A stretch of DNA of 64,000 nt from an uncultured Ruminococcus sp. (GCA_946494335.1 CAMMBV010000016.1:847-64846), one strand, 5' to 3'. Positions 33,895-50,421 are shown, counted from the stretch's first letter. The notes: a model not told the origin generated them from the sequence alone. Numbers and translations are program-made.

Positions 33895-34698
33895 ATGGCA
33901 AAATTGACTCTGAAAGAATTAAGAGATATGAAAAAAGACCCTAATCACAGGAAGCTTATTGCGGTTAATACCGGAGAAATGTTTGTAGCGGCTGCTGCGG
34001 CAGAAGCTGGAGTGGATTATATCGGCTTTGGGATGGACAGACCGGTTGATATGGCAGTTCCCGAACTGCGGGAAGTCAGGAGGGTAGTACCGGATACACT
34101 TATCTGTACGCCGCTGTTTAAGGAGTCTTCCATATCCAGTGATGAAGCGGCGCTTCGTGATGCAGTCAGGCTGCTGGAAAATGGAGCAGATGTTATCTAC
34201 TGTACCGGTATGCCGATTGAAAGGATAAAATTACTGACGAAGCATCATATTCCCTGTGTGGGACATCTTGGGCTGAAACCGTATTTTGCAAGCTGGACCG
34301 GCGGATTCAGGGCAGTGGGAAAGACAGTGGAACAGGCGGAGGAGGTGTTCGAGGAGGCTATGGAACTTAATGAAGCCGGCGTGTTTTTTGCGGAAGTTGA
34401 GTGTGTTCCTCATCAGCTGGCGGATTACATTACAAAGAAGGTGGATTTTATCACATTATCCATGGGATCCGGTGCAGGCTGTGATGCACAATTTCTGTTT
34501 GCCTGTGATTTGCTGGGGGCAACGAATGTACATTATCCCCGTCACAGTAAAAAGTACGATGATTTTTATGGCAGATCTGTTGAAGTTTTCCGTCAGTTTA
34601 TTGTAGAGAGCAGCACTGGTGTATATCCGGCATCGGAGCATATGATTGAAATGCCAGAACATACATATAAAGAGTTTTTCTCAAAACATAGTTTTTAG
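33895..34698 (+). CDS. Divergent PanB-like (ketopantoate hydroxymethyltransferase / PEP-mutase-isocitrate-lyase superfamily) protein
   Basis: IPCVGHLGLKPY, VECVP and STGVYPASEH align with E. coli PanB VPVCGHLGLTPQ, LECVP and ESGVYPGEEH. The PanB VGDSLGM motif is replaced by IGFGMD. Confidence 0.6.
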   Translation: MAKLTLKELRDMKKDPNHRKLIAVNTGEMFVAAAAAEAGVDYIGFGMDRPVDMAVPELREVRRVVPDTLICTPLFKESSISSDEAALRDAVRLLENGADVIYCTGMPIERIKLLTKHHIPCVGHLGLKPYFASWTGGFRAVGKTVEQAEEVFEEAMELNEAGVFFAEVECVPHQLADYITKKVDFITLSMGSGAGCDAQFLFACDLLGATNVHYPRHSKKYDDFYGRSVEVFRQFIVESSTGVYPASEHMIEMPEHTYKEFFSKHSF

Positions 34699-34768
34699 AT
34701 TATGAAGACAGAATTGGTATAAAGAAGAAAAATGATTCGGGGAGAGTCGATGGTAATTTGCCGGATCG

Positions 34769-34847
34769 TACAGGCAGGAGGGTATGGCCTATAATGAAAG
34801 GAGAAGCGAATATAGAAGCAATGAAATCATTAAAAGACTTGACTTTA
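34769..34847 (+). pseudogene. Third, truncated copy of the Rpn-repeat promoter and first ~14 codons
   Basis: TACAGGCAGGAGGG..CCTATAATGAAAGGAGAAG..GAAGCAATGAAATCATTAAAAGACTTGACTTTA matches 36878-36955 and 47204-47281. The start codon is ATA instead of ATG, and homology stops after codon ~14. Confidence 0.7.
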
Positions 34848-34958
34848 GATGAATACTGATAAGGAAGTATCACAAGTAAACGAGTGCCTTTGGTAAAAAC
34901 GGCTCCTTTTTGGTAAGAATTCAGATATGATAATTCTTATCGAAAAGGAGTATTTTTT

Positions 34959-35111
34959 ATGGCAATAGCAAGGAAACAAATCCGACAGATTATCTCAGAA
35001 AACAACATCAATAGTGTTGCAGATGTGAGTGTTCCGGGGCTTCGTGGTTCCTCCGCATTTTTTGGTATTTATCTATTAGGACGATACATGAGTTTTGCTT
35101 CTAATAACTGA
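34959..35111 (+). pseudogene. IS256-family transposase N-terminal remnant
   Basis: MAIARKQIRQIISENNINSVADV resembles the IS256-type N-terminus (..IRQ.I.EN.I.S..D.). The frame then degenerates and stops after 50 codons. Confidence 0.45.
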
Positions 35112-35280
35112 CGGCTACATCGACCATACATTCATAGGCAGCTGAATGCCCGCCCATATAGCCCTTTTTGAGCAAATGACAATACACATCTTTTCTGCTC
35201 ACACCTGCGTTCAGCTCCTTTGCGATATCATCGTAAAATTACTCCATGCCGCTCCTAAGCCTCAGGCATTTTTTTACCGC

Positions 35281-35804
35281 TTTCCACAAGAGTCTGGACA
35301 AGAGGCTGCTTATAGTGCTTCCAGTAAGGCAATGCTGCTTACCTATTGGAATATAGGCAAACGAATTGTAGAACAGGAACTATTGGTATATGAAAGAGGC
35401 GATTGACGAGAGCTGGAGTTCAAGAACGTTAGACCGTAATATTAGTACGCAATAATGAAGATACCTATTTAGAGGGAGATTTAGAGTCCTCTATTCTTTC
35501 ACATATTAGAGATTTTTTGATGGAACTGGAAAGAGGATTTGCCTTTGTGGCTCGTCAACAGCACATTGCAACGGAAACCTCGGATTACTATCTTGATCTC
35601 GTTTTTTATAATATTGAACTTAAGTGCTATGTCCTAATCGATTTGAAGATGGGCAAAATTACTCATCAAGACGTGGGACAGATTGACATGTATGATGATT
35701 TAAAGCGAGGGCAGGGAGATAACCCTACCATTGGGATTCTGCTGTGTTCAGAAACAGATGAGGATATTGCGCTGCGAAAGCATGTGGGCGAGAATGAAAT
35801 CTGA
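35281..35804 (+). pseudogene. DUF1016/YhcG PD-(D/E)XK nuclease pseudogene (internally deleted and frameshifted)
   Basis: Three fragments in different frames. (1) MLLTYWNIGKRIVEQE. (2) ESWSSRTLDRNISTQ-stop-stop. (3) DLESSILSHIRDFLMELERGFAFVARQQHI...DLVFYNIELKCYVLIDLKMGKITHQDVGQ...DNPTIGILLC. Confidence 0.7.
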
Positions 35805-35991
35805 ATTGCTGTATGACCGTTATGATACGGATAAAAAGACTACGGATGAATTCAGGACGATCATCTGGAGATATTTCATCAGCTACTGGAATAACCTGAG
35901 AATTTGTGCCGCCAATGGAGGTTTACTTCCGATGCTCAAACGACAGCAATGCTATGATTCACTGAAAGCGGCAGCATAGGATACAAAATCC

Positions 35992-36285
35992 TTGAGGAAA
36001 ATATGTCAACTAATCTTGAGAAGACCAAACCGCCGTTACGAGAAGCACGACGGGGACCCGGCTGTACGCCGTAGGTACGGCAGGGCGTGGAAACGAATCC
36101 GTGACCGCTATGCATCAAGACATCCTTTTTGTGAGGAGTGCCAAAGGAAAGGACTGCTGCGCCCCGTGGAGGAGGTGCATCACAAGATGCCTTTATCCGA
36201 GAGAGACACACACGATGAGAGCAACCTGGTTTCCCTTTGCAAAGAATGTCATGCGAGAATCCATGCGGAGCGTGGCGACCGCTGA
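35992..36285 (+). CDS. Phage-type HNH endonuclease, probably 5'-truncated
   Basis: RYEKHDGDPAVRRRYGRAWKRIRDRY..HPFCEECQRKG...VHHK.PLSE..THDESNLVSLCKECHARIHAERG. The usual N-terminal Cys-rich segment is missing or out of frame (MSTNLEKTKPP.. lies in another frame). Confidence 0.6.
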   Translation: MRKICQLILRRPNRRYEKHDGDPAVRRRYGRAWKRIRDRYASRHPFCEECQRKGLLRPVEEVHHKMPLSERDTHDESNLVSLCKECHARIHAERGDR

Positions 36286-36293
36286 CACAACAA

Positions 36294-36322
36294 AAGCCAT
36301 CCCACTTAGGATGAGATGGCTT
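36294..36322 (+). terminator. Hairpin after the HNH remnant
   Basis: 8-bp perfect stem AAGCCATC / GATGGCTT followed by TGCTTT. Confidence 0.4.
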
Positions 36323-36399
36323 TGCTTTAGGTTTGGTGGGCAAGTATCCACTTCAATAGCCCGGAAGAAGGAATCTCTCCTAGGGATGATTCTTAACCA

Positions 36400-36604
36400 G
36401 ACCAAAGCAGAGACGGGACGCTTACTCGTGAATCTGGAATTGATAAAGGCAGGCTATCCGCCGATTGATATTAAATTTGCAGATAGGATTGCGTATTACA
36501 ATGCTTTTGGCGAGTATCATATAAAACATAATTTGGGAGCGATGGAAAAACTATTTGCAGGGTATGTGAATGAAAGGCTGGACAGTTATTTGGCAATGTT
36601 GTAG
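36400..36604 (+). pseudogene. Fic-family protein, C-terminal fragment
   Basis: ..TGRLLVNLELIKAGYPPIDIK..R..YY.A is the tail end of the HPFxDGNGRxxRLL Fic motif plus the downstream helix. The catalytic His and the N-terminal two thirds are absent. Confidence 0.6.
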
Positions 36605-36751
36605 AGGAGTGGGCAAATAATAAAGGTAGAAATTAATGAAGAAGTGTACCATCAGGCAGAGCAGATTTTGGCATTACCAAAGTGGATCTTGGAAGGAATT
36701 TGATTTCGGCCAGCTCCAGAGGAAGAACATGTACAGTCACTGAAAAACATA

Positions 36752-36780
36752 TTGCCAATTAGAAGTATGCATGGTACAAT
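36752..36780 (+). promoter_or_regulatory. Distal candidate promoter (P1) of Rpn copy A
   Basis: TTGCCA, a 17-nt spacer, then TGg-TACAAT. The predicted TSS (~36787) coincides with the first base of the high-identity repeat. Confidence 0.45.
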
Positions 36781-36786
36781 GGTATA

Positions 36787-36870
36787 AATCTCACTGCAGC
36801 AGTTCTGCTGCAAAATCCCAAACTATTTTAAATTCCAAGGGCCGCCCGAGGTCATACGGCGGATTGTTTT
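36787..36870 (+). ncRNA. Conserved leader / candidate small RNA upstream of Rpn copy A
   Basis: Hairpin GCAGCAG-TTC-TGCTGC, then hairpin CCGCC-N11-GGCGG followed by ATTGTTTT (terminator-like). The same layout is conserved at 47108-47196. Confidence 0.3.
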
Positions 36871-36874
36871 ATCC

Positions 36875-36903
36875 TTTACAGGCAGGAGGGTGTGTCCTAT
36901 AAT
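36875..36903 (+). promoter_or_regulatory. Proximal promoter (P2) of Rpn copy A
   Basis: TTTACA, a 17-nt spacer, then TATAAT (consensus -10), 17 nt upstream of the ATG. Confidence 0.6.
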
Positions 36904-36919
36904 GAAAGGAGAAGTGCAT

Positions 36920-37750
36920 ATGGAAGCAATGAAATCATTAAAAGACTTGACTTTATTGGACCGCTTTTTGTTTGCCGAGGTAATGGAAGACAGAAAAAGC
37001 CTGGAGGCCGTGCTGGAAATTATCCTGGGGCGTGAGGTGCTGTTGGACTGTCTGCCGCAGACGGAAAAAGAAAGAAGACAGTCGCCGCTGTACCGAAATA
37101 TCCGGCTGGATGTGTGGGGAGAGGATGAAGGATCCGTATTTGATCTGGAAGTTCAGAAAAAGAATACCAGAAACTTAAGCAAAAGAAGTCGGTTTTATCA
37201 GGGGTTGATAGACGGGAAACTGTTAAAACCAGGAGAGATTGACTTCGACGGAATGAGGGATTCTTATATCATTGTCATAGCACCTTTTGATCTGTTTGGG
37301 GAAGGAAGATACCAGTATACGTTTCGGATGCGGTGTGATGAAAACCCGAAGACAGCGCTGGAAGACGGCGCGGTGCGGATTTTTCTGAACACCCATGGAT
37401 CAAATCCGGAGGAGGTAAGTCCGGAGCTGGTGGAGCTTCTGAAGTTTATGGAGCACACCAACGATAAACCAAAAGGAGGTTATCAAAGCGGGCGGATTCG
37501 CGACCTGGACAGGCGGATCGGGAAGATCAAGAGCAGTGAAGAGATAGGGGTGAAATATATGCAGGCATGGGAAGAGAGAGAACTGGAAAAACGGGAAGCA
37601 CGCCAGGAGGGCGTGGAGATCGGAAAGAAGGAGATTCTGAGAAACCAGATCAGCAAGAAGCTTCAGAAAGGGAAAACCGTCAAAGAGATAGCAGAGGAAC
37701 TGGAAGAAACGCCGGAGGTTGTTGAAAGGCTGATAAACGAATTAAAATAA
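36920..37750 (+). CDS. Rpn-family PD-(D/E)XK nuclease / putative transposase, copy A
   Basis: 276 aa from MEAMKSLKDL. The nuclease core is RLDVWGEDEGSVFDLEVQKK (D...D/E-x-K type, TIGR01784-like). SD AAAGGAG. Confidence 0.75.
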   Translation: MEAMKSLKDLTLLDRFLFAEVMEDRKSLEAVLEIILGREVLLDCLPQTEKERRQSPLYRNIRLDVWGEDEGSVFDLEVQKKNTRNLSKRSRFYQGLIDGKLLKPGEIDFDGMRDSYIIVIAPFDLFGEGRYQYTFRMRCDENPKTALEDGAVRIFLNTHGSNPEEVSPELVELLKFMEHTNDKPKGGYQSGRIRDLDRRIGKIKSSEEIGVKYMQAWEERELEKREARQEGVEIGKKEILRNQISKKLQKGKTVKEIAEELEETPEVVERLINELK

Positions 37751-37860
37751 TGTTTGGCATCCGGTATTTTTAAACGGAATAAAATATTTCTGGCGGGGAT
37801 AGTTAATCTGCGGCCAATCCTACTATATAATCGTTATAAAAAGAAAGGGTGGTTGCAGAA

Positions 37861-38880
37861 ATGAACACAAACCGAAAACTAGTTACTACGCTGTTTCAGA
37901 AAATAATTGGACAGAAGAAAGCCAGATGCCGCTGCAGCAAGGATGAGACAGTAAAGAGTATTGCGCAGAGCTGGCTGGAAAATTCCAGCTTTCATCTGAA
38001 AGAATCGTCTTATATAAGATACCGGAACCTTGTCTGGAACCATATCCTGCCAGAGCTGGGGGAAATGAAGTTAAGTGAAGTGACGACGGAACGGGTGCGG
38101 GATCTGATCAGGCAGCTGCTGCGCAAAGGCCGGAAAGACGGCAGGGGAGGTCTTTCTGAGAAAATGGTAAAAGATATATTGGCTTTGCTGAAAACCATAT
38201 GCAGATATGCCGTTCAAAAAGGGTTTGAAGTGCCGTGCTGTTTTGAATTGGTGAAAATGAAATGTACGGAAGGACAGGTCCAGATTCTTGACAGAGAGGA
38301 GCGGACGGCGCTGGAAAGATTTCTGCTTCAGGATGACAGCCTGATAAAAACCGGTATTTTACTCAGTCTGTATATGGGACTGCGTCTGGGAGAGGTGTGT
38401 GCGCTGAAAAAAAGGCATATCATATATAAAGAAGAAATACTTCAGGTGCGTTCTACGATGCAGCGGATCCAGCAGCTGGAATGTACGGATGGGAGAAAAA
38501 CAAAAGTGATTGTCACTGCTCCTAAAAGCAGCAGTTCGGTCAGAGACATTCCTATCCCGCTGTTTTTGATGGAAAGACTGGAGCGGCTTCGGTTTGCACC
38601 GGAGGATTCTTACATATTAACGGGAAAGCCGGAACGTTTTATTGAGCCGAGAACCATGGAGAATAATTTTAAAAGATTTTTGAGAGAGTGCAGAATAACG
38701 GAAATTAATTATCATGCGCTTCGTCATACGTTTGCAACCCATTGCATAGAGAATGGTTTTGATGTAAAAACCCTCAGTGAAATCCTGGGGCATGCAAATG
38801 TGAATATCACATTAAACAGATATGTTCATTCTTCTATGGAAAGGAAAAAGGAAAATATGAAAAAACTTCAAGTTGGATGA
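37861..38880 (+). CDS. Tyrosine site-specific integrase
   Basis: N-terminal SAM-like domain. Catalytic residues appear intact: R in YMGLRLGE, HALRHTF (H-x-x-R), LGH, and Y in NRYVH. Confidence 0.85.
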   Translation: MNTNRKLVTTLFQKIIGQKKARCRCSKDETVKSIAQSWLENSSFHLKESSYIRYRNLVWNHILPELGEMKLSEVTTERVRDLIRQLLRKGRKDGRGGLSEKMVKDILALLKTICRYAVQKGFEVPCCFELVKMKCTEGQVQILDREERTALERFLLQDDSLIKTGILLSLYMGLRLGEVCALKKRHIIYKEEILQVRSTMQRIQQLECTDGRKTKVIVTAPKSSSSVRDIPIPLFLMERLERLRFAPEDSYILTGKPERFIEPRTMENNFKRFLRECRITEINYHALRHTFATHCIENGFDVKTLSEILGHANVNITLNRYVHSSMERKKENMKKLQVG

Positions 38881-38894
38881 AAATTAATTTATTC

Positions 38895-38924
38895 TTTACA
38901 GAAACAGAAAGTATGTTCTGTAAT
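38895..38924 (+). promoter_or_regulatory. Candidate promoter of the jet operon with an embedded inverted repeat
   Basis: TTTACA, an 18-nt spacer, then TGTAAT. ACAGAA...TTCTGT spans the spacer. Confidence 0.45.
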
Positions 38925-38966
38925 GGAAAAGGAAGCAAAGGGTGAAAAGCCAAGAGGAGCGGCATT

Positions 38967-40445
38967 ATGATAATAGAAGAAACACTGAGAAAGCCGATGT
39001 TGGAAGCGAAGTATCTGAATGTGGAAAACACAGACAGGTACCGTCCAATTATCAGGCTTTTTTATTTGCAGTATGAGAAGCTGAAATACTGGATGTACCA
39101 GGAGGAGGTATATGAAGAGCTGAAAGAAGATCCTGGATTTGCGGATTATACGATGGAGCAGTGTCATCAGGATCTGACAGCTCTGGCGGAATGGGGGAAT
39201 CTGCTGAAGATTCAGGATACGAAAAAAGTTGCAAATATTGATGAGTTCAAGAACAGGAAGCTGCGGTATCAGCTGTCGGAGGCCACGGTGGAAATTGAAA
39301 GAATGGTCATCCGGGTGGAAAAACTGTATATAGAAAGCTCATCGCTGGAGCCGACGCTTCTGGAGCGGATTCGCATAAACCTGGGAAAAGCCGGGCAGAT
39401 GCCGGATGAGGAAATAGATATTATTTATGGGTGGTGGAACGATCTCAATAATGATTTTGTCCGCCTGAATCAGAATTATCAGGATTACATGCGGGAGCTG
39501 AACAGCATCAAAGCGGAAGAGATGATGAAGACGAAGGAATTTCTTGTGTTCAAGGATCGTCTCATTGAATATCTGAGAAATTTTGTCCGCAGTATTCAGG
39601 TGCATGTGACGGCCATCGAACAGCTGCTTAAGGGGCTGGACCGTCAGGTGATACGGGAATTGCTGGATCGGATTGCGGAATATGAATGTTCCATTCCAAG
39701 ACTGGATATGGAAGTGCCCAAAGAACAGATTTTTGATAAGGTTAAGGGACGATGGAAAAGTCTGACGGACTGGTTTGCTGGGGATGATGAAAGGGAGTCG
39801 GAGGCTTTGCGAGTGTTTGACGTGACCAACGAGATCATCCGGAAGATCACCCGGTATGCGGCAAGAATCAGTGAAATGAGCAACAGCGGCTCCAACCGCA
39901 GGGAAGAATATTATAAGATTGCCGTTATGTTTTCAAAATGTCGGGATATCAATGAAGCGCACAGACTGGCGGCGATGGTTTTCGGTATGGAAAGGCCGTT
40001 TCATTTGAAAGGGCTGGATGAAAGAAAGACGGAGAGTATCAACAGCGGCGTTTTTGACGAAGAGCCTTCTGTTGTCACTGTAATGCCCAGAGTCAGAACC
40101 TACAAAGATAAAGCCCACAGAACGGATATTGTCGATCATTCCAGGGAAAAAGAAGAGATGCGGCTTGCCGCCATACAAAGACTTGAGGATGAGAGAAAGC
40201 TGTTAAGAAGTTATATCCGGGACAATCGGATTGATTTTAAAAATCTGTCCGGGATAGAGCCTCACGTCCGGGATGTTTTTCTCTCCTGGCTATCCAAAGC
40301 GCTGGAGCAGAAGGATCTGAGGGGAAAAACACAGGACGGGCAGAAGTATTATATAGAAAACGGGGATACCAAAGAAAGATGCATGCTGAAATCATCGGAC
40401 GGCGTGCTGGAGATGCCCGCATACGTGATAAAATTTGAGGAGTGA
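38967..40445 (+). CDS. jetA: JetA-like protein, type II Wadjet (TIGR02677/DUF2397 family)
   Basis: 492 aa. The N-terminus AKYLNVENTDRYRPIIRLFY and the length fit TIGR02677. It is the first gene of a coupled four-gene operon. Confidence 0.75.
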   Translation: MIIEETLRKPMLEAKYLNVENTDRYRPIIRLFYLQYEKLKYWMYQEEVYEELKEDPGFADYTMEQCHQDLTALAEWGNLLKIQDTKKVANIDEFKNRKLRYQLSEATVEIERMVIRVEKLYIESSSLEPTLLERIRINLGKAGQMPDEEIDIIYGWWNDLNNDFVRLNQNYQDYMRELNSIKAEEMMKTKEFLVFKDRLIEYLRNFVRSIQVHVTAIEQLLKGLDRQVIRELLDRIAEYECSIPRLDMEVPKEQIFDKVKGRWKSLTDWFAGDDERESEALRVFDVTNEIIRKITRYAARISEMSNSGSNRREEYYKIAVMFSKCRDINEAHRLAAMVFGMERPFHLKGLDERKTESINSGVFDEEPSVVTVMPRVRTYKDKAHRTDIVDHSREKEEMRLAAIQRLEDERKLLRSYIRDNRIDFKNLSGIEPHVRDVFLSWLSKALEQKDLRGKTQDGQKYYIENGDTKERCMLKSSDGVLEMPAYVIKFEE

Positions 40446-40447
40446 AA

Positions 40448-41590
40448 ATGAACGCACTGGAAATACTGCTGGAAAAACGCTGGATTTTAAAAAGCAAAAA
40501 CCGGGAGCTTTATTATCAGATGAAGGATGAGGTGGGAACTGTCAAAAAGTTTCTGCTGGAAAAACTGGGATATGCGGTTATTGTAAATCCTTATCTGATC
40601 AAGGTGGAAAAAACGCCCGCCAGGCCGGAGAACTGGATGGGGATCATGGAGTTTAAAAACCAGATCGAGTACGTATTTTTCTGCATGGTGCTGATGTTTC
40701 TGGAAGAAAAGGAAACGGAAGAACAGTTTGTGCTGTCGGAACTTACGGAATATATTCAGGCAGAATACAAGGAGGAGCAGATTGACTGGACGGTTTATCG
40801 GTACAGACGCCATTTGATCCGGGTGATGAAATACTGTGAAAGCAGCGGCCTTATAAATGTCAATGACGGCACGGAGGAGAATTTTGCCAGGAATGATACC
40901 GGCGAAGTTCTTTATGAAAATACGGGAGCTTCCCGGTATTTTATGAAAAATTTCACCCGTGATATTATGGAATTTTCCGCTTTGGAGGATTTTGAAAAAG
41001 AGGACTGGATCGATGTGGACGAAGACCGGGGAATTGTCAGGCGTCAGAGAGTGTACCGGCAGCTTTTGATGACCATGGGGCTGGAACGGGAACCGGATAC
41101 GGAAGAGGACTTTGTCTATGTGAAGAATTACCGCAATATGATAGCGGATGAGCTTTCGGGGATGCTGGACTGTGAACTTCATGTGCATCGTACCGGTGCA
41201 TTTCTTGTTTTGGGAGAGAACTGCCGGATGGGCAGGCGCTTTCCGGAGGAAAATACGCTGTCGGATATTGTGCTGCTGGTAAATGAGATCATCCAGGAGA
41301 GAATCCGAAAGGGTGAAATTGCAGTGGGGGCCCAGGAGCGTATCCTTGTTCCAAAAGAATACTTTACCGGTATTCTGGAGGAATGCAAAGAAAGGTACGG
41401 ACAGGGAATGATCAAGACTTATCGGGAAATGACCACCCGGGAATTCTGTCAGATAACGGCGGATTATATGATGGAACTGGGATTTATATGTGAATACCAG
41501 GGTGATATACAGATAAAAAGAGCGGCGGGGAAGATTATGGGAAGATATCCCCGGGATTTTTTAAAGAACGGAGAAGAAGATGAACAGTAA
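40448..41590 (+). CDS. jetB: JetB-like protein, type II Wadjet (TIGR02678/DUF2398 family)
   Basis: 380 aa. ATG lies 2 nt after the jetA stop, with GAGGAG 6 nt upstream. Size and position fit TIGR02678. Confidence 0.7.
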   Translation: MNALEILLEKRWILKSKNRELYYQMKDEVGTVKKFLLEKLGYAVIVNPYLIKVEKTPARPENWMGIMEFKNQIEYVFFCMVLMFLEEKETEEQFVLSELTEYIQAEYKEEQIDWTVYRYRRHLIRVMKYCESSGLINVNDGTEENFARNDTGEVLYENTGASRYFMKNFTRDIMEFSALEDFEKEDWIDVDEDRGIVRRQRVYRQLLMTMGLEREPDTEEDFVYVKNYRNMIADELSGMLDCELHVHRTGAFLVLGENCRMGRRFPEENTLSDIVLLVNEIIQERIRKGEIAVGAQERILVPKEYFTGILEECKERYGQGMIKTYREMTTREFCQITADYMMELGFICEYQGDIQIKRAAGKIMGRYPRDFLKNGEEDEQ

Positions 41591-44500
41591 ATGGCAGTTA
41601 AACCGGATCGGGCTGGTGGATTTCTGGTACTACGATGAAGAAGAGTTATATTTTCGGGACGGCAGGATGCTGCTTCGGGGGGCCAACGGTTCCGGAAAAA
41701 CCGTTACCATGCAGAGCTTTATTCCCCTTCTTTTGGACGGCAATATGCGGCCGGAAAGACTGGATACCTTTGGGTCCAAGGCCAGAAAGATGGAAAATTA
41801 TCTTCTGGATGAGGAGGATGAAAGGGAGGAACGGACCGGGTATCTGTATATGGAACTGAAGCGGGAGAAAAGTGAAGAGTATCTCACCCTGGGGATGGGC
41901 ATCCGTGCAAGGAAGAACAAAAAGCTGGATTCCTGGTATTTCTGTGTGACGGATGGACGCAGGATCGGCCATGACCTTTTCCTTTACCGGGAGGGCACAG
42001 GCAAAGTGGCCTGCACCATGCGGGAGCTGAAAAACCGGGTAGGCGACGGCGGTCAGGTGATGGAAAGTCAGAAGGAATACGCCCGGTGCGTAAACCGTCT
42101 TCTCTTTGGTTTTGAGTCTCAGGAGGAATACAAGGAGCTGATGGACCTTCTGATACAGCTGAGGACGCCCAAGCTTTCCAAAGATTTCAAACCAACGGTT
42201 ATCAATGAGATTCTCAGCGGTTCCCTGCAGACTCTGTCGGAGGATGACCTGCGGCCCATGTCGGAAGCCATAGAAAACATGGACAGCCTGAAAACAAATC
42301 TGGATGTTTTAAAAGACAGTATTCAGGCGGCGGAACAGATAGAAAGGGTCTATGATCAGTACAATGAAATTGTGCTGTATGACAAGGCTCTTATGTTTAC
42401 CAATGCGGTAAAAATGCATCAGGAGGTCAGCGCCAGGGGAGAAGAGCTGGAAAAAGAAGCCGGCCGCTGCCGCAGGGAACACACAGAGGAAGAAGAAAGA
42501 TACCGGCAGCTTAAGGCGGAGGAGAAAATCCTTCAGGAAGAAAGAGCATCTCTGTCTGACAGTGATGCAGCCAGACTGAAGGAGGAAGAGCTTAAGCTGC
42601 GCGCCATTCTAAAAGAGCAGGAAAATACCATATCGGAGAAGAGGCGGCAGGAAGAGGAGAAAAAGGAAAAGTATCTGGAGGCGAAAGTGCGCAGAGACGC
42701 TGCGGCGGAAAAAAACCAACAGATATGGGACGAGATAGAGGATAGCATGAATGAAATGGAGGACACCCTTGGCGACGTTCCCTTCGATGATTTTTCATTT
42801 TTAAAGGCGGAGCTTACGCAACACAGGGAAAAATCCTTCCCTTTTGATTCCCATATCAGGCTTTTGAAAGAATATGTCCGGAAAGTAAAAGAAGGCCGGG
42901 ATATTCTGGAAAAGGAGAGGGTCTGCCAGGAGAAATACAGCCGTCTGCTGCAGGAACTGGACGGATTTCAGGATAAAAAAAGCGCCATGGAGCGGGAAGT
43001 CCTTCAGTATGAAAATCTGCTCCATGAAACGAAGCAGGAGCTGATAGAAAAGATCTGTCAGTGGGCCAGGGGAAACAGCCAGCTTTGTCTTCCACCGGAG
43101 CTTTTGCAGAATATGATAAGAAGAATTGAATCTTACGGTTCGGATACGGATTACTGGGAAATAAAGAATCTTGCAAAACCTATGTTTGATGAAGCGGAAA
43201 AGGAGATCCTGCTTAAAATCCGGGAAAAAGAGTGGGAGCTGACGGAAAAGAGGAAGGAAAAAGAGGGACTGATCAAAGAAATAGAGGAGTGGAAAAATCG
43301 AAAGGAGCCGGAACCGGAAAGGGACGCTGCGGTACTGGAGAACAGAAAACGTCTGGATGAAAAGGGGATCCCTTATCTTACCTTTTATCAGGCGGTGGAT
43401 TTTGATTCACGGCTGGATGAGGGAAAAAGGGCATGGCTGGAGGAAACCCTTTTTCATATGGGAATTTTGGACGCACTGATTGTTCCGGCCCAGTACAGAG
43501 AGCAGGTTATGGATGTGGACAAAGGCAGATGCGACCGGTATCTGTTTACCGACGCTCCTTATGTAAAAAATAATCTGACTGATCTTCTGGATATCGAGAA
43601 CGGAGAAAATGATATACTGCTGTATCAGAATGTATCGGCAGTGCTGTCCGCTGTCAGCTGCAATGCTTCGGAAACGCGGCGGAATGCCGGCGGTACCTGG
43701 ATGGATGAAAAGGGCAGTTATGGGATCGGCATAGTGGAAGGTACGGTGACGGGAGAATATAAACCCCGTTTTATCGGGGCAGCCGCCAGAGAGCAGTATC
43801 GTCTGGAGCAAATGCAAAAGCTGGAAGAGACACTTCTTTTGATAGAGGAGGAAGAAAAGGCCCTGGAGACCAGGATTTTCGCTTTAACAGAGCAAGAAAA
43901 GAATCTGGAAAATGAGTGGGAAACCTTTCCAAAGGATCAGGATCTGAAAGTGGCGGCGCGGGAGTTTGAAAAGCGGGAAGAAAGGCTGGAGGAGCTCAAT
44001 GACAGAATCCGGGAGCAGAAAAAACTGGTTGAGGCAGAACGGGTATCCCTGGATGAAATAAGGCAGCAGGTGCAGAAAATCTGCCGCAGCGCATGGCTGA
44101 TGCCGCGGCTGGATGTGTTTGAAAAGGCGCTGGAATCGCTGCAGACTTATCGGGAGTATCTGTCGGCGGTTCAGGTTGCCCATGGGAATTATATCAACGG
44201 CATAAGGTATGTGGAAAGCCAGGATGAGTATCTGGAAGAGACCGACCGGGATCTGGATCAAATCCGATATGACCTGGGACGGGCGGTAAACAGCCAGAGG
44301 GAAAGCCAGAGCAGTCTTAATTCCGTTTTGGAACGGCTCAAACTGACGGACTATGAGAAAATAAAGGAAAGGCTGGAATACTGCATCGGCCGTTTGGCTC
44401 TGCTGCCGGGGGAAATAGAAGAGTCCGTACGGCTTATGACTACGCTGCGGGATAAAGAAGCTTCGCTTCTGGAGAAACAGCGGGAAAATGAAGTGGAGCT

Positions 44501-45671
44501 GGGAAAGATTCTGGACAGAAAGGAAAGACTTTCCCGGGTGTTTGCCAGTGAATATGATCTGGGTTATGTGAAGGAATGCGCTGAGGATACAAAGGAAAGT
44601 CAGGAGCAGGCGAAGAAAATATGTTCTCTGCTGGCCGGCCGGTTCGGAAGCCGGAAACAGAGCGATCTTCTGGGAAGCCTTCAGGAGATGTTTCATAAAA
44701 ACCGCGGATATCTGCTGGAATATCAGATCGCTCTGAAAACCCTGTTTGAAAAACTGGATGAAGAGACGTCCTTCCATGAGATCAGTGTGAAAAGAATCGA
44801 TATCACGGCGAAATACCGAGGTGCCACGGTAAAATTTAAGGAGCTTCTTTCGGCTATGCGGGAGGACGCCCGGATACAGACACAGCTGCTCAGCGAAAAA
44901 GACAGAGAGCTGTTTGAGGATATCTTTGCCAATACCATCAGTAAAAAGATTCGCAGCAGAATTCAGGCCAGCAGGCGCTGGGTGGAGAAAATGAATGTTC
45001 TCATGGAATCCATGCAGACCTCCAGCGGTCTGACTTTAAGTCTGCGATGGAAAAACAAGAGCGCGGAAAAAGAGGAGCAGCTGGACACGAAAGAGCTGGT
45101 AGCGCTGCTGCAGAAGGATGTGGAGATTATGCGTCCGGAAGAAGCACAGCAGCTGGCCGGGCATTTCCGCTCCAAAATCGATGAGGCCAGGAAGCGGGCG
45201 GAGGACACCGGAGAGGTCCGGTCCTTCCACGGCATTATGAAGGAAGTGCTGGACTACCGGCAGTGGTTTGAATTTCAGCTGGAATGTCAGAAAACCGGTG
45301 AGCGAAAGAAAGAACTGACGGATCGGGTATTTTTTACTTTCAGCGGCGGAGAAAAGGCCATGGCCATGTACGTGCCCCTGTTCTCTGCTGTGGCGGCGAA
45401 GTACGGGGGAGCCCGTGACGACGCCCCCAGGCTGATATCCCTTGACGAAGCCTTTGCCGGTGTGGATGAGATGAATATCCGGGATATGTTCCGGCTGATG
45501 GTAGAATTTGAATTTAACTTTATTATCAATTCTCAGATTCTGTGGGGAGACTACGACACGGTTCCCGGGCTTGCCATCTATCAGCTGGTACGTCCGGAAA
45601 ATGTCAGGTATGTTACGGTGATACGCTATTTGTGGAACGGAAGCGTCAGGAGTATGGTAAATGGTTCATAA
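41580..45671 (+). CDS. jetC: JetC-like SMC-family ATPase, type II Wadjet (TIGR02680 family)
   Basis: 1363 aa. Walker A GANGSGKT (residues 34-41), a very long E/K/R/L-rich coiled-coil-like middle, signature FSGGEKA (1254-1260), Walker B LISLDEAF (D1289, E1290). It overlaps jetB by 11 nt. Confidence 0.85.
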   Translation: MNSKWQLNRIGLVDFWYYDEEELYFRDGRMLLRGANGSGKTVTMQSFIPLLLDGNMRPERLDTFGSKARKMENYLLDEEDEREERTGYLYMELKREKSEEYLTLGMGIRARKNKKLDSWYFCVTDGRRIGHDLFLYREGTGKVACTMRELKNRVGDGGQVMESQKEYARCVNRLLFGFESQEEYKELMDLLIQLRTPKLSKDFKPTVINEILSGSLQTLSEDDLRPMSEAIENMDSLKTNLDVLKDSIQAAEQIERVYDQYNEIVLYDKALMFTNAVKMHQEVSARGEELEKEAGRCRREHTEEEERYRQLKAEEKILQEERASLSDSDAARLKEEELKLRAILKEQENTISEKRRQEEEKKEKYLEAKVRRDAAAEKNQQIWDEIEDSMNEMEDTLGDVPFDDFSFLKAELTQHREKSFPFDSHIRLLKEYVRKVKEGRDILEKERVCQEKYSRLLQELDGFQDKKSAMEREVLQYENLLHETKQELIEKICQWARGNSQLCLPPELLQNMIRRIESYGSDTDYWEIKNLAKPMFDEAEKEILLKIREKEWELTEKRKEKEGLIKEIEEWKNRKEPEPERDAAVLENRKRLDEKGIPYLTFYQAVDFDSRLDEGKRAWLEETLFHMGILDALIVPAQYREQVMDVDKGRCDRYLFTDAPYVKNNLTDLLDIENGENDILLYQNVSAVLSAVSCNASETRRNAGGTWMDEKGSYGIGIVEGTVTGEYKPRFIGAAAREQYRLEQMQKLEETLLLIEEEEKALETRIFALTEQEKNLENEWETFPKDQDLKVAAREFEKREERLEELNDRIREQKKLVEAERVSLDEIRQQVQKICRSAWLMPRLDVFEKALESLQTYREYLSAVQVAHGNYINGIRYVESQDEYLEETDRDLDQIRYDLGRAVNSQRESQSSLNSVLERLKLTDYEKIKERLEYCIGRLALLPGEIEESVRLMTTLRDKEASLLEKQRENEVELGKILDRKERLSRVFASEYDLGYVKECAEDTKESQEQAKKICSLLAGRFGSRKQSDLLGSLQEMFHKNRGYLLEYQIALKTLFEKLDEETSFHEISVKRIDITAKYRGATVKFKELLSAMREDARIQTQLLSEKDRELFEDIFANTISKKIRSRIQASRRWVEKMNVLMESMQTSSGLTLSLRWKNKSAEKEEQLDTKELVALLQKDVEIMRPEEAQQLAGHFRSKIDEARKRAEDTGEVRSFHGIMKEVLDYRQWFEFQLECQKTGERKKELTDRVFFTFSGGEKAMAMYVPLFSAVAAKYGGARDDAPRLISLDEAFAGVDEMNIRDMFRLMVEFEFNFIINSQILWGDYDTVPGLAIYQLVRPENVRYVTVIRYLWNGSVRSMVNGS

Positions 45672-46998
45672 GGATCAGGAAATAAAACAATGCGCGGCAT
45701 ATTTCAAAGAGCGTCCGGTGTATGAAAAGCTTTTTCAAAAATTCCGGAAAAAGTATGAAAGTCTGGGGCATTTCGGCGGGACAGTGGTGCTGTCCGGACT
45801 GACAGGGGAAGAAAAGAACCAGCTGGGCGGTTTCCTGCAGAAAGATTATACGGAGCACACAAAGATAGCTGTTTCGGCCTCTCTGATGGAAAAGGCGCTT
45901 GCTTCCAGCAGGTTTTCTGATCTTTCCTGGGAAGAGATCCTGGAGACATATTTCGGAGAGAAGCTGACGGTCAAAAAAGAAGCAAAGCGGCAGCAGGAGA
46001 AGGAAAAGGAGGCATTCTTTTCTGATATACTTAACAACAGTCCGGACGGTCCGGGAAAATCCTGGCTTATTCGTGTGTTGAAAGAGCGGGAAGAAGGCTT
46101 TTCCTGGATGATGCAGCAGTACAGAGAAAGACCCGGTGAGCTTTCAGGGATTGTAAAAAATGTGCTGACAGCCATACCGCTTCTGCCGGTATTTTCAGAA
46201 GGGAAGGAAAAAATGCTGCTGGCAGTTTTTGCAGCAGAGGTTACCGGAAATCCCCATTATTTTGATGAGGGAAGCAGAGGCGAGGCGCTTCTATTTGCGT
46301 TCATAAAAAGTTATCTGAACATGGAAGTAAAGGAGGGCTTATCCCGGGCGGAATACAAGAAGAAACTGTTTTTTGAGGCGGGAATTTTAAAGGACGAGCT
46401 GTCCAGCGATGTGCTGGCATACGGAATACGGGCAGTGAGAAAGGACGGGAGTGTTCATCCGGGTGTGGAAGGCTTTTTCAGGTGCCGGGAACCGGTGAAA
46501 CTGACCCTTAAGACACTGGGAAATATCGACAGGATCTTTTCTGGGAAGGAAGAAAATGAAAATGGCCCGGGCAAAGTGTACGTGGTGGAAAATCCGGCAG
46601 TGTTTTCCGCGCTGACACAGAAGTATCCGGACAGGGCACTGATCTGCGGAAACGGCCAGCTGAAGCTGGCTGTGCTCCTGCTTATGGATAAACTGAAAGA
46701 AAACAGTGTGTTTTATTATGCCGGTGATTTTGATCCTGAAGGAATGATGATAGCCCAGAAACTGAAAATCCGGTACGGTGAGCGGCTGAATCTGTGGAAT
46801 TACAGAGAAAAGCTTTACAGAAGGTATCTGTCAGATGTGATTCTTGATAATACGCGTATAAAAAAGCTGGACAAAATAACGATTCCTGAACTTCAGGAAG
46901 TGAAAGAAGCAATGATAAAGGAAAAGCGCGCAGCCTATCAGGAGACAATGTTGGAGGAATACCAGAAAAATATAGAAGGAAACAATGAGTTGTTATAA
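45661..46998 (+). CDS. jetD: JetD-like Toprim nuclease subunit, type II Wadjet (TIGR02679; DUF3323 + DUF2399)
   Basis: 445 aa. Toprim-like Glu in YVVENPAVF (E310) and DxD in YAGDFDPEG (D356/D358). It overlaps jetC by 11 nt. Confidence 0.8.
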   Translation: MVHKDQEIKQCAAYFKERPVYEKLFQKFRKKYESLGHFGGTVVLSGLTGEEKNQLGGFLQKDYTEHTKIAVSASLMEKALASSRFSDLSWEEILETYFGEKLTVKKEAKRQQEKEKEAFFSDILNNSPDGPGKSWLIRVLKEREEGFSWMMQQYRERPGELSGIVKNVLTAIPLLPVFSEGKEKMLLAVFAAEVTGNPHYFDEGSRGEALLFAFIKSYLNMEVKEGLSRAEYKKKLFFEAGILKDELSSDVLAYGIRAVRKDGSVHPGVEGFFRCREPVKLTLKTLGNIDRIFSGKEENENGPGKVYVVENPAVFSALTQKYPDRALICGNGQLKLAVLLLMDKLKENSVFYYAGDFDPEGMMIAQKLKIRYGERLNLWNYREKLYRRYLSDVILDNTRIKKLDKITIPELQEVKEAMIKEKRAAYQETMLEEYQKNIEGNNELL

Positions 46999-47012
46999 GT
47001 GACCGGAGTATT

Positions 47013-47046
47013 CTGGCTGCATACATTTATCAATGTATGCAGCCAG
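47013..47046 (+). terminator. Hairpin closing the jet operon
   Basis: Perfect 13-bp stem CTGGCTGCATACA / TGTATGCAGCCAG with an 8-nt loop, 15 nt past the jetD stop. There is no strong U-run. Confidence 0.55.
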
Positions 47047-47072
47047 AGCTTGTTAAGCAATTTATATAGATA

Positions 47073-47101
47073 TTGTCAATCAAAAAGATACATGATAATA
47101 T
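47073..47101 (+). promoter_or_regulatory. Distal candidate promoter (P1) of Rpn copy B
   Basis: TTGTCA, a 17-nt spacer, then TAATAT. The predicted TSS (~47108) again coincides with the start of the repeat. Confidence 0.45.
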
Positions 47102-47107
47102 AAAAGG

Positions 47108-47196
47108 AATCTCACCGCAGCAGTTCTGCTGCAAAATCCCAATCTTATTTTAAATTTAACCAGGGACCGCCCGGGGCCCATATGGCGGATGGTTTT
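47108..47196 (+). ncRNA. Conserved leader / candidate small RNA upstream of Rpn copy B
   Basis: Same GCAGCAG-TTC-TGCTGC hairpin, and CCGCC-N12-GGCGG followed by ATGGTTTTG. The loops differ from copy A while the stems are kept. Confidence 0.3.
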
Positions 47197-47200
47197 GTCC

Positions 47201-47229
47201 TTTACAGGCAGAAAGGCGTGTCCTATAAT
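47201..47229 (+). promoter_or_regulatory. Proximal promoter (P2) of Rpn copy B
   Basis: TTTACA, a 17-nt spacer, then TATAAT, the same layout as copy A. Confidence 0.6.
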
Positions 47230-47245
47230 GAAAGGAGAAGTGCAT

Positions 47246-48100
47246 ATGGAAGCAATGAAATCATTAAAAGACTTGACTTTATTGGACCGCTTTTTGTTTG
47301 CCGAGGTAATGGAAGACAGAAAAAGCCTGGAGGCCGTGCTGGAAATTATCCTGGGGCGTGAGGTGCTGTTGAACTGTCTTCCGCAGACGGAAAAAGAAAA
47401 ACGGCAGTCACCGCTGTACCGGAATATCCGTCTGGATGTGTGGGGCGAGGATGAGAGATCCGTATTTGATCTGGAAGTTCAGAAAAAGAATACCAGAAAC
47501 TTAAGCAGAAGGAGCCGGTTCTACCAGGGGCTGATAGACGGGAAGCTGTTAAAACCGGGAGAAGTTGATTTTGATCAGATGAAGGATTCCTATATTATCA
47601 TCATAGCGCCTTTTGACCTGTTTGGGGAAGGGAGATACCGATATACGTTCCGGATGCGATGTGACGAAAACCCAAAGACAGCGCTGGAAGACGGCGCGGT
47701 GCGGATTTTTCTGAACACCCATGGATCAAATCCGGAGGAGGTGAGTCCGGAGCTGGTGGAGCTTCTGAGGTTTATGGAGCATACCAACGATAAACCCGAG
47801 GGAGGGTATCAAAGCGAGCGGATCCGTGATCTGGACAGGCGGATCGGAAAGATCAAGAGCAGTGAAGAGATAGGGGTGAAATATATGCAGGAATGGGAAG
47901 AGAGAGAGCTGGAAAAGCGGGAAGCGCACCGAGAGGGCAGGGAGATTGGAAAACAGGAGGGTGTGGAGATCGGAAAGCAGGAGATTCTGAGAAGCCAGAT
48001 CAGCAAGAAGCTGCAGAAAGGAAAAACTGTCAAAGAGATAGCAGAGGAACTGGAAGAGACGCCGGAGGTTGTTGAAAGACTGATAAAAGAATTAAAATAA
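47246..48100 (+). CDS. Rpn-family PD-(D/E)XK nuclease / putative transposase, copy B
   Basis: 284 aa from MEAMKSLKDL. The same DLEVQKK core, differing from copy A by roughly 15-20 substitutions plus an 8-residue insertion. Confidence 0.75.
   Translation: MEAMKSLKDLTLLDRFLFAEVMEDRKSLEAVLEIILGREVLLNCLPQTEKEKRQSPLYRNIRLDVWGEDERSVFDLEVQKKNTRNLSRRSRFYQGLIDGKLLKPGEVDFDQMKDSYIIIIAPFDLFGEGRYRYTFRMRCDENPKTALEDGAVRIFLNTHGSNPEEVSPELVELLRFMEHTNDKPEGGYQSERIRDLDRRIGKIKSSEEIGVKYMQEWEERELEKREAHREGREIGKQEGVEIGKQEILRSQISKKLQKGKTVKEIAEELEETPEVVERLIKELK
47933..47980 (+). repeat. 24-nt tandem duplication inside Rpn copy B (EGREIGKQ / EGVEIGKQ)
   Basis: GAGGGCAGGGAGATTGGAAAACAG followed by GAGGGTGTGGAGATCGGAAAGCAG (19 of 24 identical). 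Copy A has a single unit. Confidence 0.85.
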
Positions 48101-48104
48101 TGTT

Positions 48105-48170
48105 CAGCCTGGCTTGGCAGGGGAAGAAAAGAATTATTTCGGAGAAAAGCTGACGGCAAAAAAGGACTGA
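48105..48170 (+). pseudogene. Relic of a second jetD-like gene abutting repeat B
   Basis: 48135-48165 matches jetD 45949-45979 at 27 of 31 nt, in the same orientation. Translation ..GEEKNYFGEKLTAKKD-stop compares with JetD residues 90-106 WEEILETYFGEKLTVKKE. Confidence 0.55.
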
Positions 48171-48497
48171 ACAGTCAGTTTTGCGCTGCGGAAGGTGCAG
48201 GCCTCCAGAATCTGTTCTCTGGATTTTTCCGTCTGATGCCGATACTATTCTTTCAAATAATACATTTGTATTCTCCTGTTATCGTGATAAAATTCTGTTT
48301 AAATAATGAGGAAAGGTTCATATTAATTTTATTAAGGAGAAGGATTAACGGTTGAAAACCTTGCAGGAGGCTGTAATCTGTGGTATGGTGAATTATTGGA
48401 AATTGTTTCGCACCAATGATATTTACTGGAGCGGATAAAAGCAAAAAGAGATAGAAGTTTCGAATCATAATTTCAATGTAAAAGGGAGTAAATCAAT

Positions 48498-50336
48498 ATG
48501 TGTGGAATTGTAGGTTATGTAGGAAATAAACAGGCAGCGCCCATTTTGTTAAACGGACTGGAAAAGCTGGAATACCGGGGATATGATTCTGCCGGTCTTG
48601 CCGTACGTGATTGTGAAAAAGAAGTGGAGGTCGTGAAGGCAAAGGGAAGGCTTAAAATCCTGGCGGAGAAGACCAACGGTGGAAATGCCATGGTGGGTAC
48701 CTGCGGAATCGGACACACCAGATGGGCAACCCACGGTGAGCCGTCAGAGGAAAACGCCCATCCCCACTGCAGCGACGACGGCAACGTGGTGGGCGTCCAT
48801 AACGGTATTATAGAAAATTATCAGGAGCTGCGGGATAAACTGGTTCGCAACGGTTATCAGTTCTATTCCTCCACGGATACGGAAGTGGCCATCAAACTGG
48901 TGGATTATTACTATAAAAAATATCTGGGAACGCCGGTTGACGCGCTGAATCATGCCATGGTGCGTATCCGCGGTTCCTATGCGCTGGCAGTGATGTTTCA
49001 TGATTATCCCGGGGAAATATATGTGGCCAGAAAAGACAGCCCCATGATCATCGGAGTGGAAAATGAGGAATCCTATCTGGCGTCGGACGTTCCGGCCATT
49101 CTTGAGTATACCAGAAATGTTTATTATATCGGCAACATGGAGATCGGACGTCTCCAGAAAGGAAACGTTACTTTCTACAATCTGGACGGCGATGAGATTG
49201 AAAAGCCGCTGACAGAGATCGGCTGGGATGCGGAAGCTGCGGAAAAGGCCGGATATGAGCACTTCATGATGAAGGAAATCCATGAGCAGCCCAAGGCTGT
49301 GGCGGACACGATCCATTCTGTAGTAAAGGAAGGGAAGATTGAGCTGGCCGAGGTGGGACTTTCCGAGGAGGAGATCCGGGACATCAGTCAGATTTATATC
49401 GTAGCCTGCGGTTCCGCCTACCATGTGGGCGTGGTGGCACAGTATGTGATGGAGGATCTGGCAAAGATTCCCGTGCGTGTGGAGCTGGCTTCTGAATTCC
49501 GCTACCGCAGACCTCTGCTGGATAAGAAGGGACTTGTGATTGTTATCAGCCAGTCCGGTGAAACAGCGGACAGTCTGGCTGCGCTGCGGGAAGCTAAGGA
49601 GATGGGAGTGAAGACTCTGGCTGTCGTCAATGTGATCGGTTCTTCCATTGCCCGTGAGGCGGATAATGTCTTTTACACCCTGGCGGGACCGGAGATTGCG
49701 GTTGCCACCACGAAAGCCTACAGTACACAGCTGATTGCCTCCTATATTCTTTCCATACAGTTTGCTTTGGTTCGCAATGAGATTACGGAAGAGGAAGCAC
49801 AGAGTCTTCTCACGGAGATGCAGACGCTGCCGGATAAAATCGAAAAGATAATCGAGGACAAAGAGCGTCTTCAGTGGTTTGCCGCCAAGCAGGCATCTGC
49901 AAAGGATATTTTCTTTATCGGCCGTGGAATCGACTATGCCATTTCTCTGGAAGGCAGTCTGAAGATGAAGGAAATCAGCTATATCCATTCAGAGGCTTAT
50001 GCGGCCGGAGAGCTGAAGCACGGAACCATCTCGCTGATCGAGGACGGGACGCTGGTGATCGGTGTGCTGACCCAGCAGGAGCTGTATGAGAAAACGGTCA
50101 GCAACATGGTGGAGTGTAAAAGCCGGGGCGCTTATCTGATGGGACTTACTACCTACGGCAATTACAATATTGAAGATACAGCGGATTTTGTGACTTACAT
50201 TCCGAAGACGGATGTGCATTTTTCGGCATCCCTGGCGGTGGTTCCGCTGCAGCTGATGGGATATTACGTATCGGTGGCAAAGGGTCTGGATGTGGATAAA
50301 CCCAGAAATCTGGCCAAGAGCGTAACCGTGGAATAA
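48498..50336 (+). CDS. glmS: Glutamine--fructose-6-phosphate aminotransferase
   Basis: N-terminal MCGIVGY (Ntn Cys), two SIS domains, C-terminal AKSVTVE. Confidence 0.93.
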   Translation: MCGIVGYVGNKQAAPILLNGLEKLEYRGYDSAGLAVRDCEKEVEVVKAKGRLKILAEKTNGGNAMVGTCGIGHTRWATHGEPSEENAHPHCSDDGNVVGVHNGIIENYQELRDKLVRNGYQFYSSTDTEVAIKLVDYYYKKYLGTPVDALNHAMVRIRGSYALAVMFHDYPGEIYVARKDSPMIIGVENEESYLASDVPAILEYTRNVYYIGNMEIGRLQKGNVTFYNLDGDEIEKPLTEIGWDAEAAEKAGYEHFMMKEIHEQPKAVADTIHSVVKEGKIELAEVGLSEEEIRDISQIYIVACGSAYHVGVVAQYVMEDLAKIPVRVELASEFRYRRPLLDKKGLVIVISQSGETADSLAALREAKEMGVKTLAVVNVIGSSIAREADNVFYTLAGPEIAVATTKAYSTQLIASYILSIQFALVRNEITEEEAQSLLTEMQTLPDKIEKIIEDKERLQWFAAKQASAKDIFFIGRGIDYAISLEGSLKMKEISYIHSEAYAAGELKHGTISLIEDGTLVIGVLTQQELYEKTVSNMVECKSRGAYLMGLTTYGNYNIEDTADFVTYIPKTDVHFSASLAVVPLQLMGYYVSVAKGLDVDKPRNLAKSVTVE

Positions 50337-50414: not shown

Positions 50415-50421
50415 TAATTTT

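Follow-up and report, generated by a model that had tools for sequence, protein, structure and literature searches.

How two complete rpn genes came to flank an integrase and a Wadjet operon, and whether these flanking copies are what moves the genes between them, is the question raised by a stretch of DNA from an uncultured Ruminococcus sp. (GCA_946494335.1 CAMMBV010000016.1:847-64846). The whole stretch of 64,000 nucleotides is called the window here, and positions are counted from its first letter; the features described lie on the plus strand, except for gene debris to which no strand was assigned. The rpn locus has panB upstream and glmS downstream. The original prediction, made from the sequence alone, took the rpn repeats for the arms of a composite defence module that could be gained, lost or swapped by homologous recombination or by Rpn or integrase activity. 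Our results showed that the exchange at this locus took place within 14 nt at the rpn promoter. We believe that the locus is probably a 10,326-bp defence island, inserted by its own recombinase, which carries a paralogue of the gene where it lands.

Self-comparison of positions 34000-51000 and pairwise alignment showed that 36787-37754 and 47108-48104 are direct repeats of approximately 1 kb each. The two agree at 889 of 968 aligned positions (91.8% without gaps, 89.2% when 29 gap columns are counted), which is far above chance, and a single 24-nt in-frame indel near the 3' end separates them. Each repeat consists of an upstream promoter-like site, a leader of about 140 nt, the promoter TTTACA-17-TATAAT, which is near consensus (11/12 matches), and a complete rpn coding sequence (CDS). 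A perfect tract of 154 nt (36892-37045 and 47218-47371) extends from the promoter and covers the first 126 nt of the CDS. The homology ends 4 nt past the TAA stop of each copy, at 37754 and 48104, and a weaker similarity of 72% extends upstream of the strong repeats to approximately 36724 and 47045. The repeats enclose a tyrosine recombinase and jetA, jetB, jetC and jetD only; no further gene was found between them, as the remaining open reading frames (ORFs) of at least 80 aa lie inside or overlap those already named, nearly all on the opposite strand. The predicted layout was therefore confirmed by self-comparison, alignment, and ORF and profile scans: collinear repeats that are each a complete rpn unit, CDS starts identical in both copies, homology stopping 4 nt beyond each stop codon, and an enclosed integrase with intact catalytic residues beside jetABCD alone. 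A third rpn-related copy of 79 nt (34769-34847), comprising the promoter and the CDS start, had been overlooked. Those homologues that carry names suggest Lachnospiraceae such as Blautia, Dorea and Faecalimonas.

Related alleles were retrieved by exact look-up of the window PanB in metagenome contigs. The contigs belong to the same species, with flanks 99.4-99.5% identical to the window, and represent three alleles. The empty allele has the order panB-leader-rpn-glmS (contig L002) and encodes the Rpn protein P0121; look-up of P0121 found matching contig structure in SRR13292371, SRR27784496, SRR13292335 and SRR13292351 (panB end cut). The empty site was thus present in 4 runs of two accession series (SRR132923xx and SRR27784496), and at least 3 of them span panB to glmS. 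The second allele, from sample ERZ15845617, is occupied and free of debris: contig L001 (6.6x) reads panB-native leader-rpnE-int-jetABC, contig L106 (6.3x) reads jetD-element leader-rpn-glmS, and the right rpn encodes exactly P0121, the empty-site protein. The window arrangement, found in many runs, is the third, with 2 kb of additional DNA separating panB from the left repeat. As had been proposed, the unit is genuinely polymorphic for presence and absence, and the single rpn next to glmS that had been suggested as a check exists in at least 3 samples. Between the occupied alleles the island (36786-45562 versus L001:10928-19705) differs by 2.0%, fairly evenly, which is four-fold the 0.5% of the flanks; this divergence is compatible with separate acquisitions at one site. 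Exact look-ups of glmS, the right rpn (290 aa) and the left rpn (282 aa) are not on record, and the contigs found with glnA were too short upstream for other cargo to show.

The exchange was located by aligning the empty, left and right copies and tabulating the variable sites. Upstream of 36871 and 47197, the empty allele equals the left copy at all markers (12 substitutions and 3 indels), and the right leader is diverged; from 36886 and 47212 onwards, the empty allele follows the right copy. This switch indicates that the left copy is composed of native leader, core and imported gene, and the right copy of imported leader, core and resident gene. Both window junctions lie on a single contig, with the exchange between 36871 and 36886 on the left and between 47197 and 47212 on the right. 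The data show a clean reciprocal crossover within 14 nt, TCCTTTACAGGCAG, which overlap the -35 box of the rpn promoter. One copy of this core is at 36872-36885 (attL; flanking markers at 36871 and 36886, overlapping the -35 hexamer TTTACA), and the other is at 47198-47211 (attR; alignments and marker table). The core-to-core segment, 36872-47197, has a period of 10,326 bp. Within the repeats, the exchange falls 86 nt from the strong left edge and 869 nt from the right edge. The repeats are thus not the equivalent arms that had been proposed: the right copy is the resident, encoding the empty-site protein in ERZ15845617, and the left copy is cargo. Likewise, the bounds of the unit are not the repeat ends but the 14-nt crossover site.

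The leader upstream of the left rpn, which forms the left half of attL (36745-36871; alignments and promoter scan), is identical to the empty-site leader (N type) over 36786-36871, and 36745-36785 is a diverged version containing the promoter-like TTGCCA-17-TACAAT. The left half of attR (47066-47197) is an element-type leader (E type), a diverged homologue of the native one, which contains TTGTCA-17-TAATAT. The proximal rpn promoter of the left copy was placed at 36875-36903 by promoter scan. An Rfam scan of 33500-49000 returned nothing real, and a structured leader RNA is unsupported, as leader folding was no better than that of shuffled sequence (z-scores +0.8 and -0.2). The imported unit was then reconstructed and aligned with the resident unit. 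The 14-nt tract accounts for 1.5% of the identical positions of the two units, and for none if at least 20 identical bases are required. The 154-nt identical tract, which starts 6 nt downstream of the core, past three closely spaced promoter single-nucleotide polymorphisms, was not used in the crossover. The attB junction sequence is GGATTGTTTTATCCTTTACAGGCAGAAAGGCGTGTCC, and the inferred attP junction sequence is GGATGGTTTTGTCCTTTACAGGCAGGAGGGTGTGTCC. The core as a general attB was rejected, its sequence not being conserved upstream of rpn relatives in other species.

Because the crossover fell within 14 nt and the 154-nt tract was left unused, site-specific integration is favoured over homologous recombination, and we consider integration of the 10,326-bp island by its own recombinase at the rpn-promoter core the probable explanation. 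The cargo would comprise rpnE (presumably a toxic nuclease of the RpnL/RpnS type with its antitoxin), the recombinase and the type II Wadjet operon, with the element's own rpn leader last. In the circular form, attP would lie between the element leader and the element rpn promoter. Strand exchange by the recombinase would take place between TCCTTTACAGGCAG of the element and its identical counterpart in front of the resident rpn, between panB and glmS. As a result, rpnE would come to lie behind the native leader and the resident rpn behind the element leader, with a promoter retained by both genes. The repeats of approximately 1 kb would be a by-product, two diverged rpn units set side by side because the island carries a paralogue of the gene where it lands. 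Afterwards, they would permit gene conversion and could permit loss of the island by homologous recombination. A trace of the predicted gene conversion is present, as the two copies of the 154-nt tract are equal within each genome and differ at 3 positions between genomes. Since the sites are in direct orientation, excision as a circle would be expected and would leave the observed empty site; the recombinase would be the catalyst, and the island would presumably still be able to excise. This is a fairly ordinary mobile defence island, which requires neither a new kind of Rpn-armed cassette nor a new mechanism. What is unusual is the attachment site at the promoter of the cargo gene's paralogue and a recombinase clade otherwise seen at capsule loci.

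The recombinase (37861-38880, 339 aa) matches Pfam Phage_integrase (E 2.3e-22) and Phage_int_SAM_3. Its proposed role is supported indirectly by the catalytic residues R175, H285-x-x-R288, H311 and Y321, which are invariant in the integrase alignment, and by its closest relative outside the element, P0002 (64% identity). P0002 adjoins a 173-nt promoter segment with 29-nt inverted repeats (TTTCGTAGAG-7 nt-CTCTACGAAA), upstream of two NusG-like genes and a glycan (capsular polysaccharide, CPS) locus. The segment (L120:5023-5253, L122:2630-2860, L121:3755-3984) occurs in both orientations across contigs (L120 versus L122), which indicates that P0002 adjoins an active recombination site close to a promoter. 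In every case the nearest integrases (59-64% identity) stand at the head of a glycan or capsule gene cluster, with no rpn gene next to them; this clade seems to be tied to variable surface-polysaccharide loci. The relatives P0003 and P0016 likewise head glycan loci. Contigs L120 and L121 share an identical integrase and upstream genes, and beyond the NusG-like genes each has its own set of glycosyltransferase and capsule genes. Near the window integrase, a search for paired inverted repeats gave none. Scans with the integrase gave two distant relatives only in genome_contigs (36% identity; a 35-residue fragment) and nothing in viral_contigs. A literature search for Lachnospiraceae capsule invertons returned nothing specific.

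Several observations weigh against integration by this recombinase. The core shows weak dyad symmetry (CCTTT-N8-AAAGG in attB, and poorer still in the attP sequence as inferred) and is unlike the recombination site beside the 64% relative. The gene rpnE separates the integrase gene from the core, a distance of approximately 1 kb. ORF and Pfam scans of the element revealed no excisionase, relaxase or oriT. The sequence of the element before integration had to be inferred. Every contig leaving jetD enters attR, no attP or circular junction was seen in the contigs, and the attP sequence had no match in viral_contigs; this is a weak test, as it covers assembled contigs and not raw reads. No invertible segment was found near P0003 and P0016 (59-61% identity). 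The alleles compared all come from metagenomes assembled from short reads. The two occupied strains may descend from one integration, in which case the crossover position is a single observation.

A possible but less probable route to the same structure is homologous recombination of the Campbell type. A circle carrying rpnE-int-jetABCD would have recombined with the resident rpn, either RecA-dependently or through short homology; the integrase would be a passenger or serve another role, and the island would be lost in the same way. Approximately 1 kb of homology is on hand (90% identity), and the rpn alleles are mosaic, with the 154-nt tract apparently homogenised per genome, which indicates that homologous exchange does act on the rpn copies. 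The missing attP and the two integrase relatives without detectable site-specific activity nearby also speak for this route. It sits poorly with a crossover tract of just 14 nt bordered by mismatches on both sides, when the 154-nt tract and eleven further tracts of 20-37 nt were available and went unused. Moreover, both reciprocal products are clean, with no conversion patches at the junction, and the breakpoint of the remnant described below falls in the same 14 nt.

That remnant of a third rpn unit (34769-34847; 90-94% identity in self-comparison, supported by the alignments) starts with TACAGGCAGG inside the core and continues through the promoter, the ribosome-binding site position and approximately 9 codon positions, in which the start codon reads ATA. 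The native leader is missing upstream of it; a deletion there via a pseudo-site was considered, and the sequence fits it poorly. Gene debris of about 1.9 kb follows (34848-36744), with a YhcG/DUF1016 PDDEXK fragment, an rve_2 fragment, an HNH endonuclease ORF and two ORFs without a Pfam match, which we take to be an N-terminal fragment of an IS256-like transposase and a C-terminal fragment of a Fic-like protein. The whole stretch 34769-36786 is absent from L001 and L002. Remnant and debris suggest that another rpn-headed unit once stood here in tandem and that insertion at this site was repeated. A bolder version, which we regard as unlikely, is that the rpn promoter is a docking point for an array of cassettes, each starting at the core and bringing its own rpn and defence cargo, which a recombinase of a promoter-flipping clade stacks, swaps and removes. 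If true, it would mean an integron-like diversification of Rpn specificity (the number of 4-aa repeats) and of the linked defence systems, and it could account for a divergence of the resident rpn alleles that far exceeds that of the flanking DNA. In a weaker variant, the nuclease activity of Rpn could stimulate the exchanges.

The tandem units might also be read as purely local history, in which rpn was duplicated in tandem long ago, int-jetABCD was separately inserted between the two copies, and deletion then gave rise to the empty alleles. Three rpn-related units do stand in tandem in the window, and the synonymous divergence (dS) of 0.31-0.40 between element-type and resident-type alleles (0.35 between the window copies) indicates that the two types are old. 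We nevertheless consider this history improbable. The empty allele joins the right-copy protein to the left-copy leader with a sharp switch at the core, so a deletion would have needed exactly the 14-nt tract. In addition, the leader after jetD is a diverged homologue of the native leader, as an imported unit predicts, and the divergence of the element is four-fold that of the flanks.

Rpn-driven mobility was part of the original prediction. In this reading the nucleases would cut at or near their own genes, so that the intervening DNA is captured, lost or swapped independently of RecA. Overexpressed E. coli Rpn raises RecA-independent recombination, and the RpnA endonuclease is non-specific (Kingston et al. 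2017, PMC5350276). The speculation of Zhong et al. is that RpnL may contribute to the generation of duplicated rpn genes, and rpn genes are described there as lacking autonomous mobility (PMC10400941). The resident rpn alleles are also unusually diverged (dS 0.26) compared with the flanks (0.5%). Cutting without sequence specificity does not predict a precise and reciprocal exchange, and we hold movement of the unit by Rpn to be very unlikely. Nor do rpn pairs recur as the arms of a cassette. We surveyed 80 metagenome loci of Rpn relatives (56-61% identical), with up to 10 kb of flank per side and less on short contigs. None of the 80 had a second rpn copy or rpn-flanked cargo within this flank, and only 1 had an integrase relative nearby. 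The nearest integrases and the nearest JetA relative have no rpn neighbour either. Finally, the least likely explanation is that the empty site is an artefact of short-read assemblers collapsing the repeats and skipping the cargo, for although the 154-nt tract is identical and occupied-strain assemblies do break there, the switch from left to right occurs within 14 nt, which is shorter than assembly k-mers, the empty contigs carry a 12-nt indel state and approximately 25 positions that neither copy of the window has, and the same contig sequence was recovered in 4 runs of two accession series.

The element-borne rpnE (36920-37750), a gene for a predicted Rpn-family PD-(D/E)XK nuclease, encodes 276 aa with no extra 4-aa repeat, and the resident rpn (47246-48100, N' allele), contiguous with the glmS flank, encodes 284 aa with two extra repeats. 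NCBIfam TIGR01784 (Rpn family) scored 52.1 bits for the left and 58.9 bits for the right protein against a cut-off of 52.1, and Pfam PDDEXK_2 scored 27.1 and 27.2, just under its cut-off of 27.4. The residues D64, E77 and Q79 are invariant among 49 Rpn relatives, and K80 is invariant among 7 close relatives. Once the species' own alleles are set aside, the closest Rpn proteins show 67-68% identity. The AlphaFold model was mediocre (pLDDT 67; below 50 for residues 47-112). A fold search against the PDB gave no match at E <1, with the last approximately 35 residues weakly resembling helix-turn-helix domains, and a sequence search against the PDB gave no match. With dN/dS of 0.06-0.09, both copies are under purifying selection and presumably functional genes.

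Some further observations concern the rpn genes and their surroundings. The resident rpn of the window and that of L002:11062-11904 and L106:1739-2581 are at dS 0.26, with 58 positions differing in 500 nt of the 3' half and flanks at about 0.5%. This divergence is unevenly spread, as though parts had been drawn from other rpn alleles not seen here. Every rpn copy of this species has a second promoter-like site approximately 130 nt further upstream. In the loci L025-L104 of several species, the -10 box before the rpn start directly abuts the ribosome-binding site (TAYAATGAAAGGAGAA), so that a transcript from the proximal promoter would have a very short 5' untranslated region. The Rpn relative at L059:2251-3180 has AEGL/AEGR four-residue repeats at the same C-terminal position, and 1.6 kb upstream of it is a partial relative of the integrase (46% identity). 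In the interval between the right rpn and glmS, 69 nt with a terminator-like hairpin (48198-48266) are present in the window and not in the empty-site contigs.

The genes of Wadjet, an anti-plasmid system, follow the recombinase in the order jetA (38967-40445; DUF2397), jetB (40442-41590; DUF2398), jetC (41580-45671; SMC/MukB-like ATPase) and jetD (45661-46998; DUF3323 and DUF2399), all assigned to type II by PADLOC. PADLOC JetA2, B2, C2 and D2 gave full-length matches (E 3e-203 to 0), and TIGR02677, 02678, 02680 and 02679 match JetA-D in that order, with JetD slightly below its cut-off (176 versus 196 bits). Judging by these matches, the operon is a complete type II Wadjet in the order jetA-B-C-D. 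A perfect hairpin after jetD (47012-47047, found as a self-complementary match) is likely a terminator and the end of the cargo. The 8-mer CTTTACAG recurs past the integrase, at 38894; it was dropped as a second recombination site and attributed to the -35-like TTTACA of a probable jetA promoter.

How the locus relates to known systems can be considered for each of its parts. For the Rpn proteins, the closest model is that of Zhong et al. (2023), in which an internal start of RpnL gives the antitoxin RpnS, strains differ in repeat number, and the toxin is neutralised solely by a partner whose repeat number matches (PMC10400941). The window proteins resemble this system in the family profile match and have a candidate D...E-x-K motif (D64, E77 and K80). 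Length differences of 0, +4 and +8 aa distinguish the three alleles of the species at a single point in the C-terminal helical region, so this region varies by 4-aa steps as well. Met214 is invariant in the 7 closest relatives and at least 90% conserved among 49, is preceded by AGGGGTG, and stands 16 residues before the repeat region, which fits the 8-20 residues reported for the RpnS start (PMC10400941). The ORFs starting at Met214 (37559-37750, 63 aa, on the left; 47885-48100, 71 aa, on the right, with a repeat region 8 aa longer) are candidate RpnS antitoxins. In contrast to the E. coli proteins, which match PF04754, those of the window had no match to it in the Pfam scan; they match TIGR01784 and PDDEXK_2. 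A further difference is that two alleles of unlike repeat number share one locus. The island has put them side by side, and published work implies no cross-neutralisation, so that the two units would act as separate toxin-antitoxin or defence pairs. The locus also offers an example of an rpn gene that hitchhikes on a mobile island, a route suggested before (PMC10400941) and rarely documented. More generally, an island that carries a paralogue of its target can leave gene-length direct repeats on either side of its defence cargo, and such repeats need not be the arms of a new type of transposon.

Type II Wadjet, JetABCD, is said to go back to Doron et al. in 2018; the four window genes share its order jetA-B-C-D and its profiles, matched strongly and at full length. 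The difference lies in the linkage to an integrase and rpn, since the nearest JetA (77% identity), from another Lachnospiraceae, is at another locus with neither. Tandem accretion of integrative elements is known from ICESt1/ICESt3 and the cis-mobilizable elements (CIMEs) of Streptococcus thermophilus. The window is similar in that units in a row start at the same site and the older one has decayed (34769-36786); unlike those elements, it contains no conjugation genes, and its accretion is inferred from one truncated unit. Phase-variation recombinases are reportedly found beside the invertible promoters of gut capsule loci, the invertons of the PhaseFinder survey of 2019. The likeness here is the 64% integrase relative beside a promoter segment of two orientations, and the inferred window site also overlaps a promoter; the window sites, however, are direct and 10.3 kb apart, so that excision and integration are predicted and not inversion.

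The closest counterpart is the category of integrase-only defence islands described from E. coli hotspots (Hochhauser et al. 2023, PMC10121019). Like those, the island is a variable segment between core genes, carries defence genes with one integrase and no other mobility genes, and is present in some strains only. Such islands are common and their movement is poorly understood; here the empty site, both junctions and the 14-nt exchange site are all visible. The present island differs in its host, a gut Lachnospiraceae-like bacterium and not E. coli, and in having its attachment site mapped to 14 nt in the promoter of a resident defence gene. It also differs in that this resident gene is a paralogue of the island's own cargo, hence the gene-length repeats that flank it.

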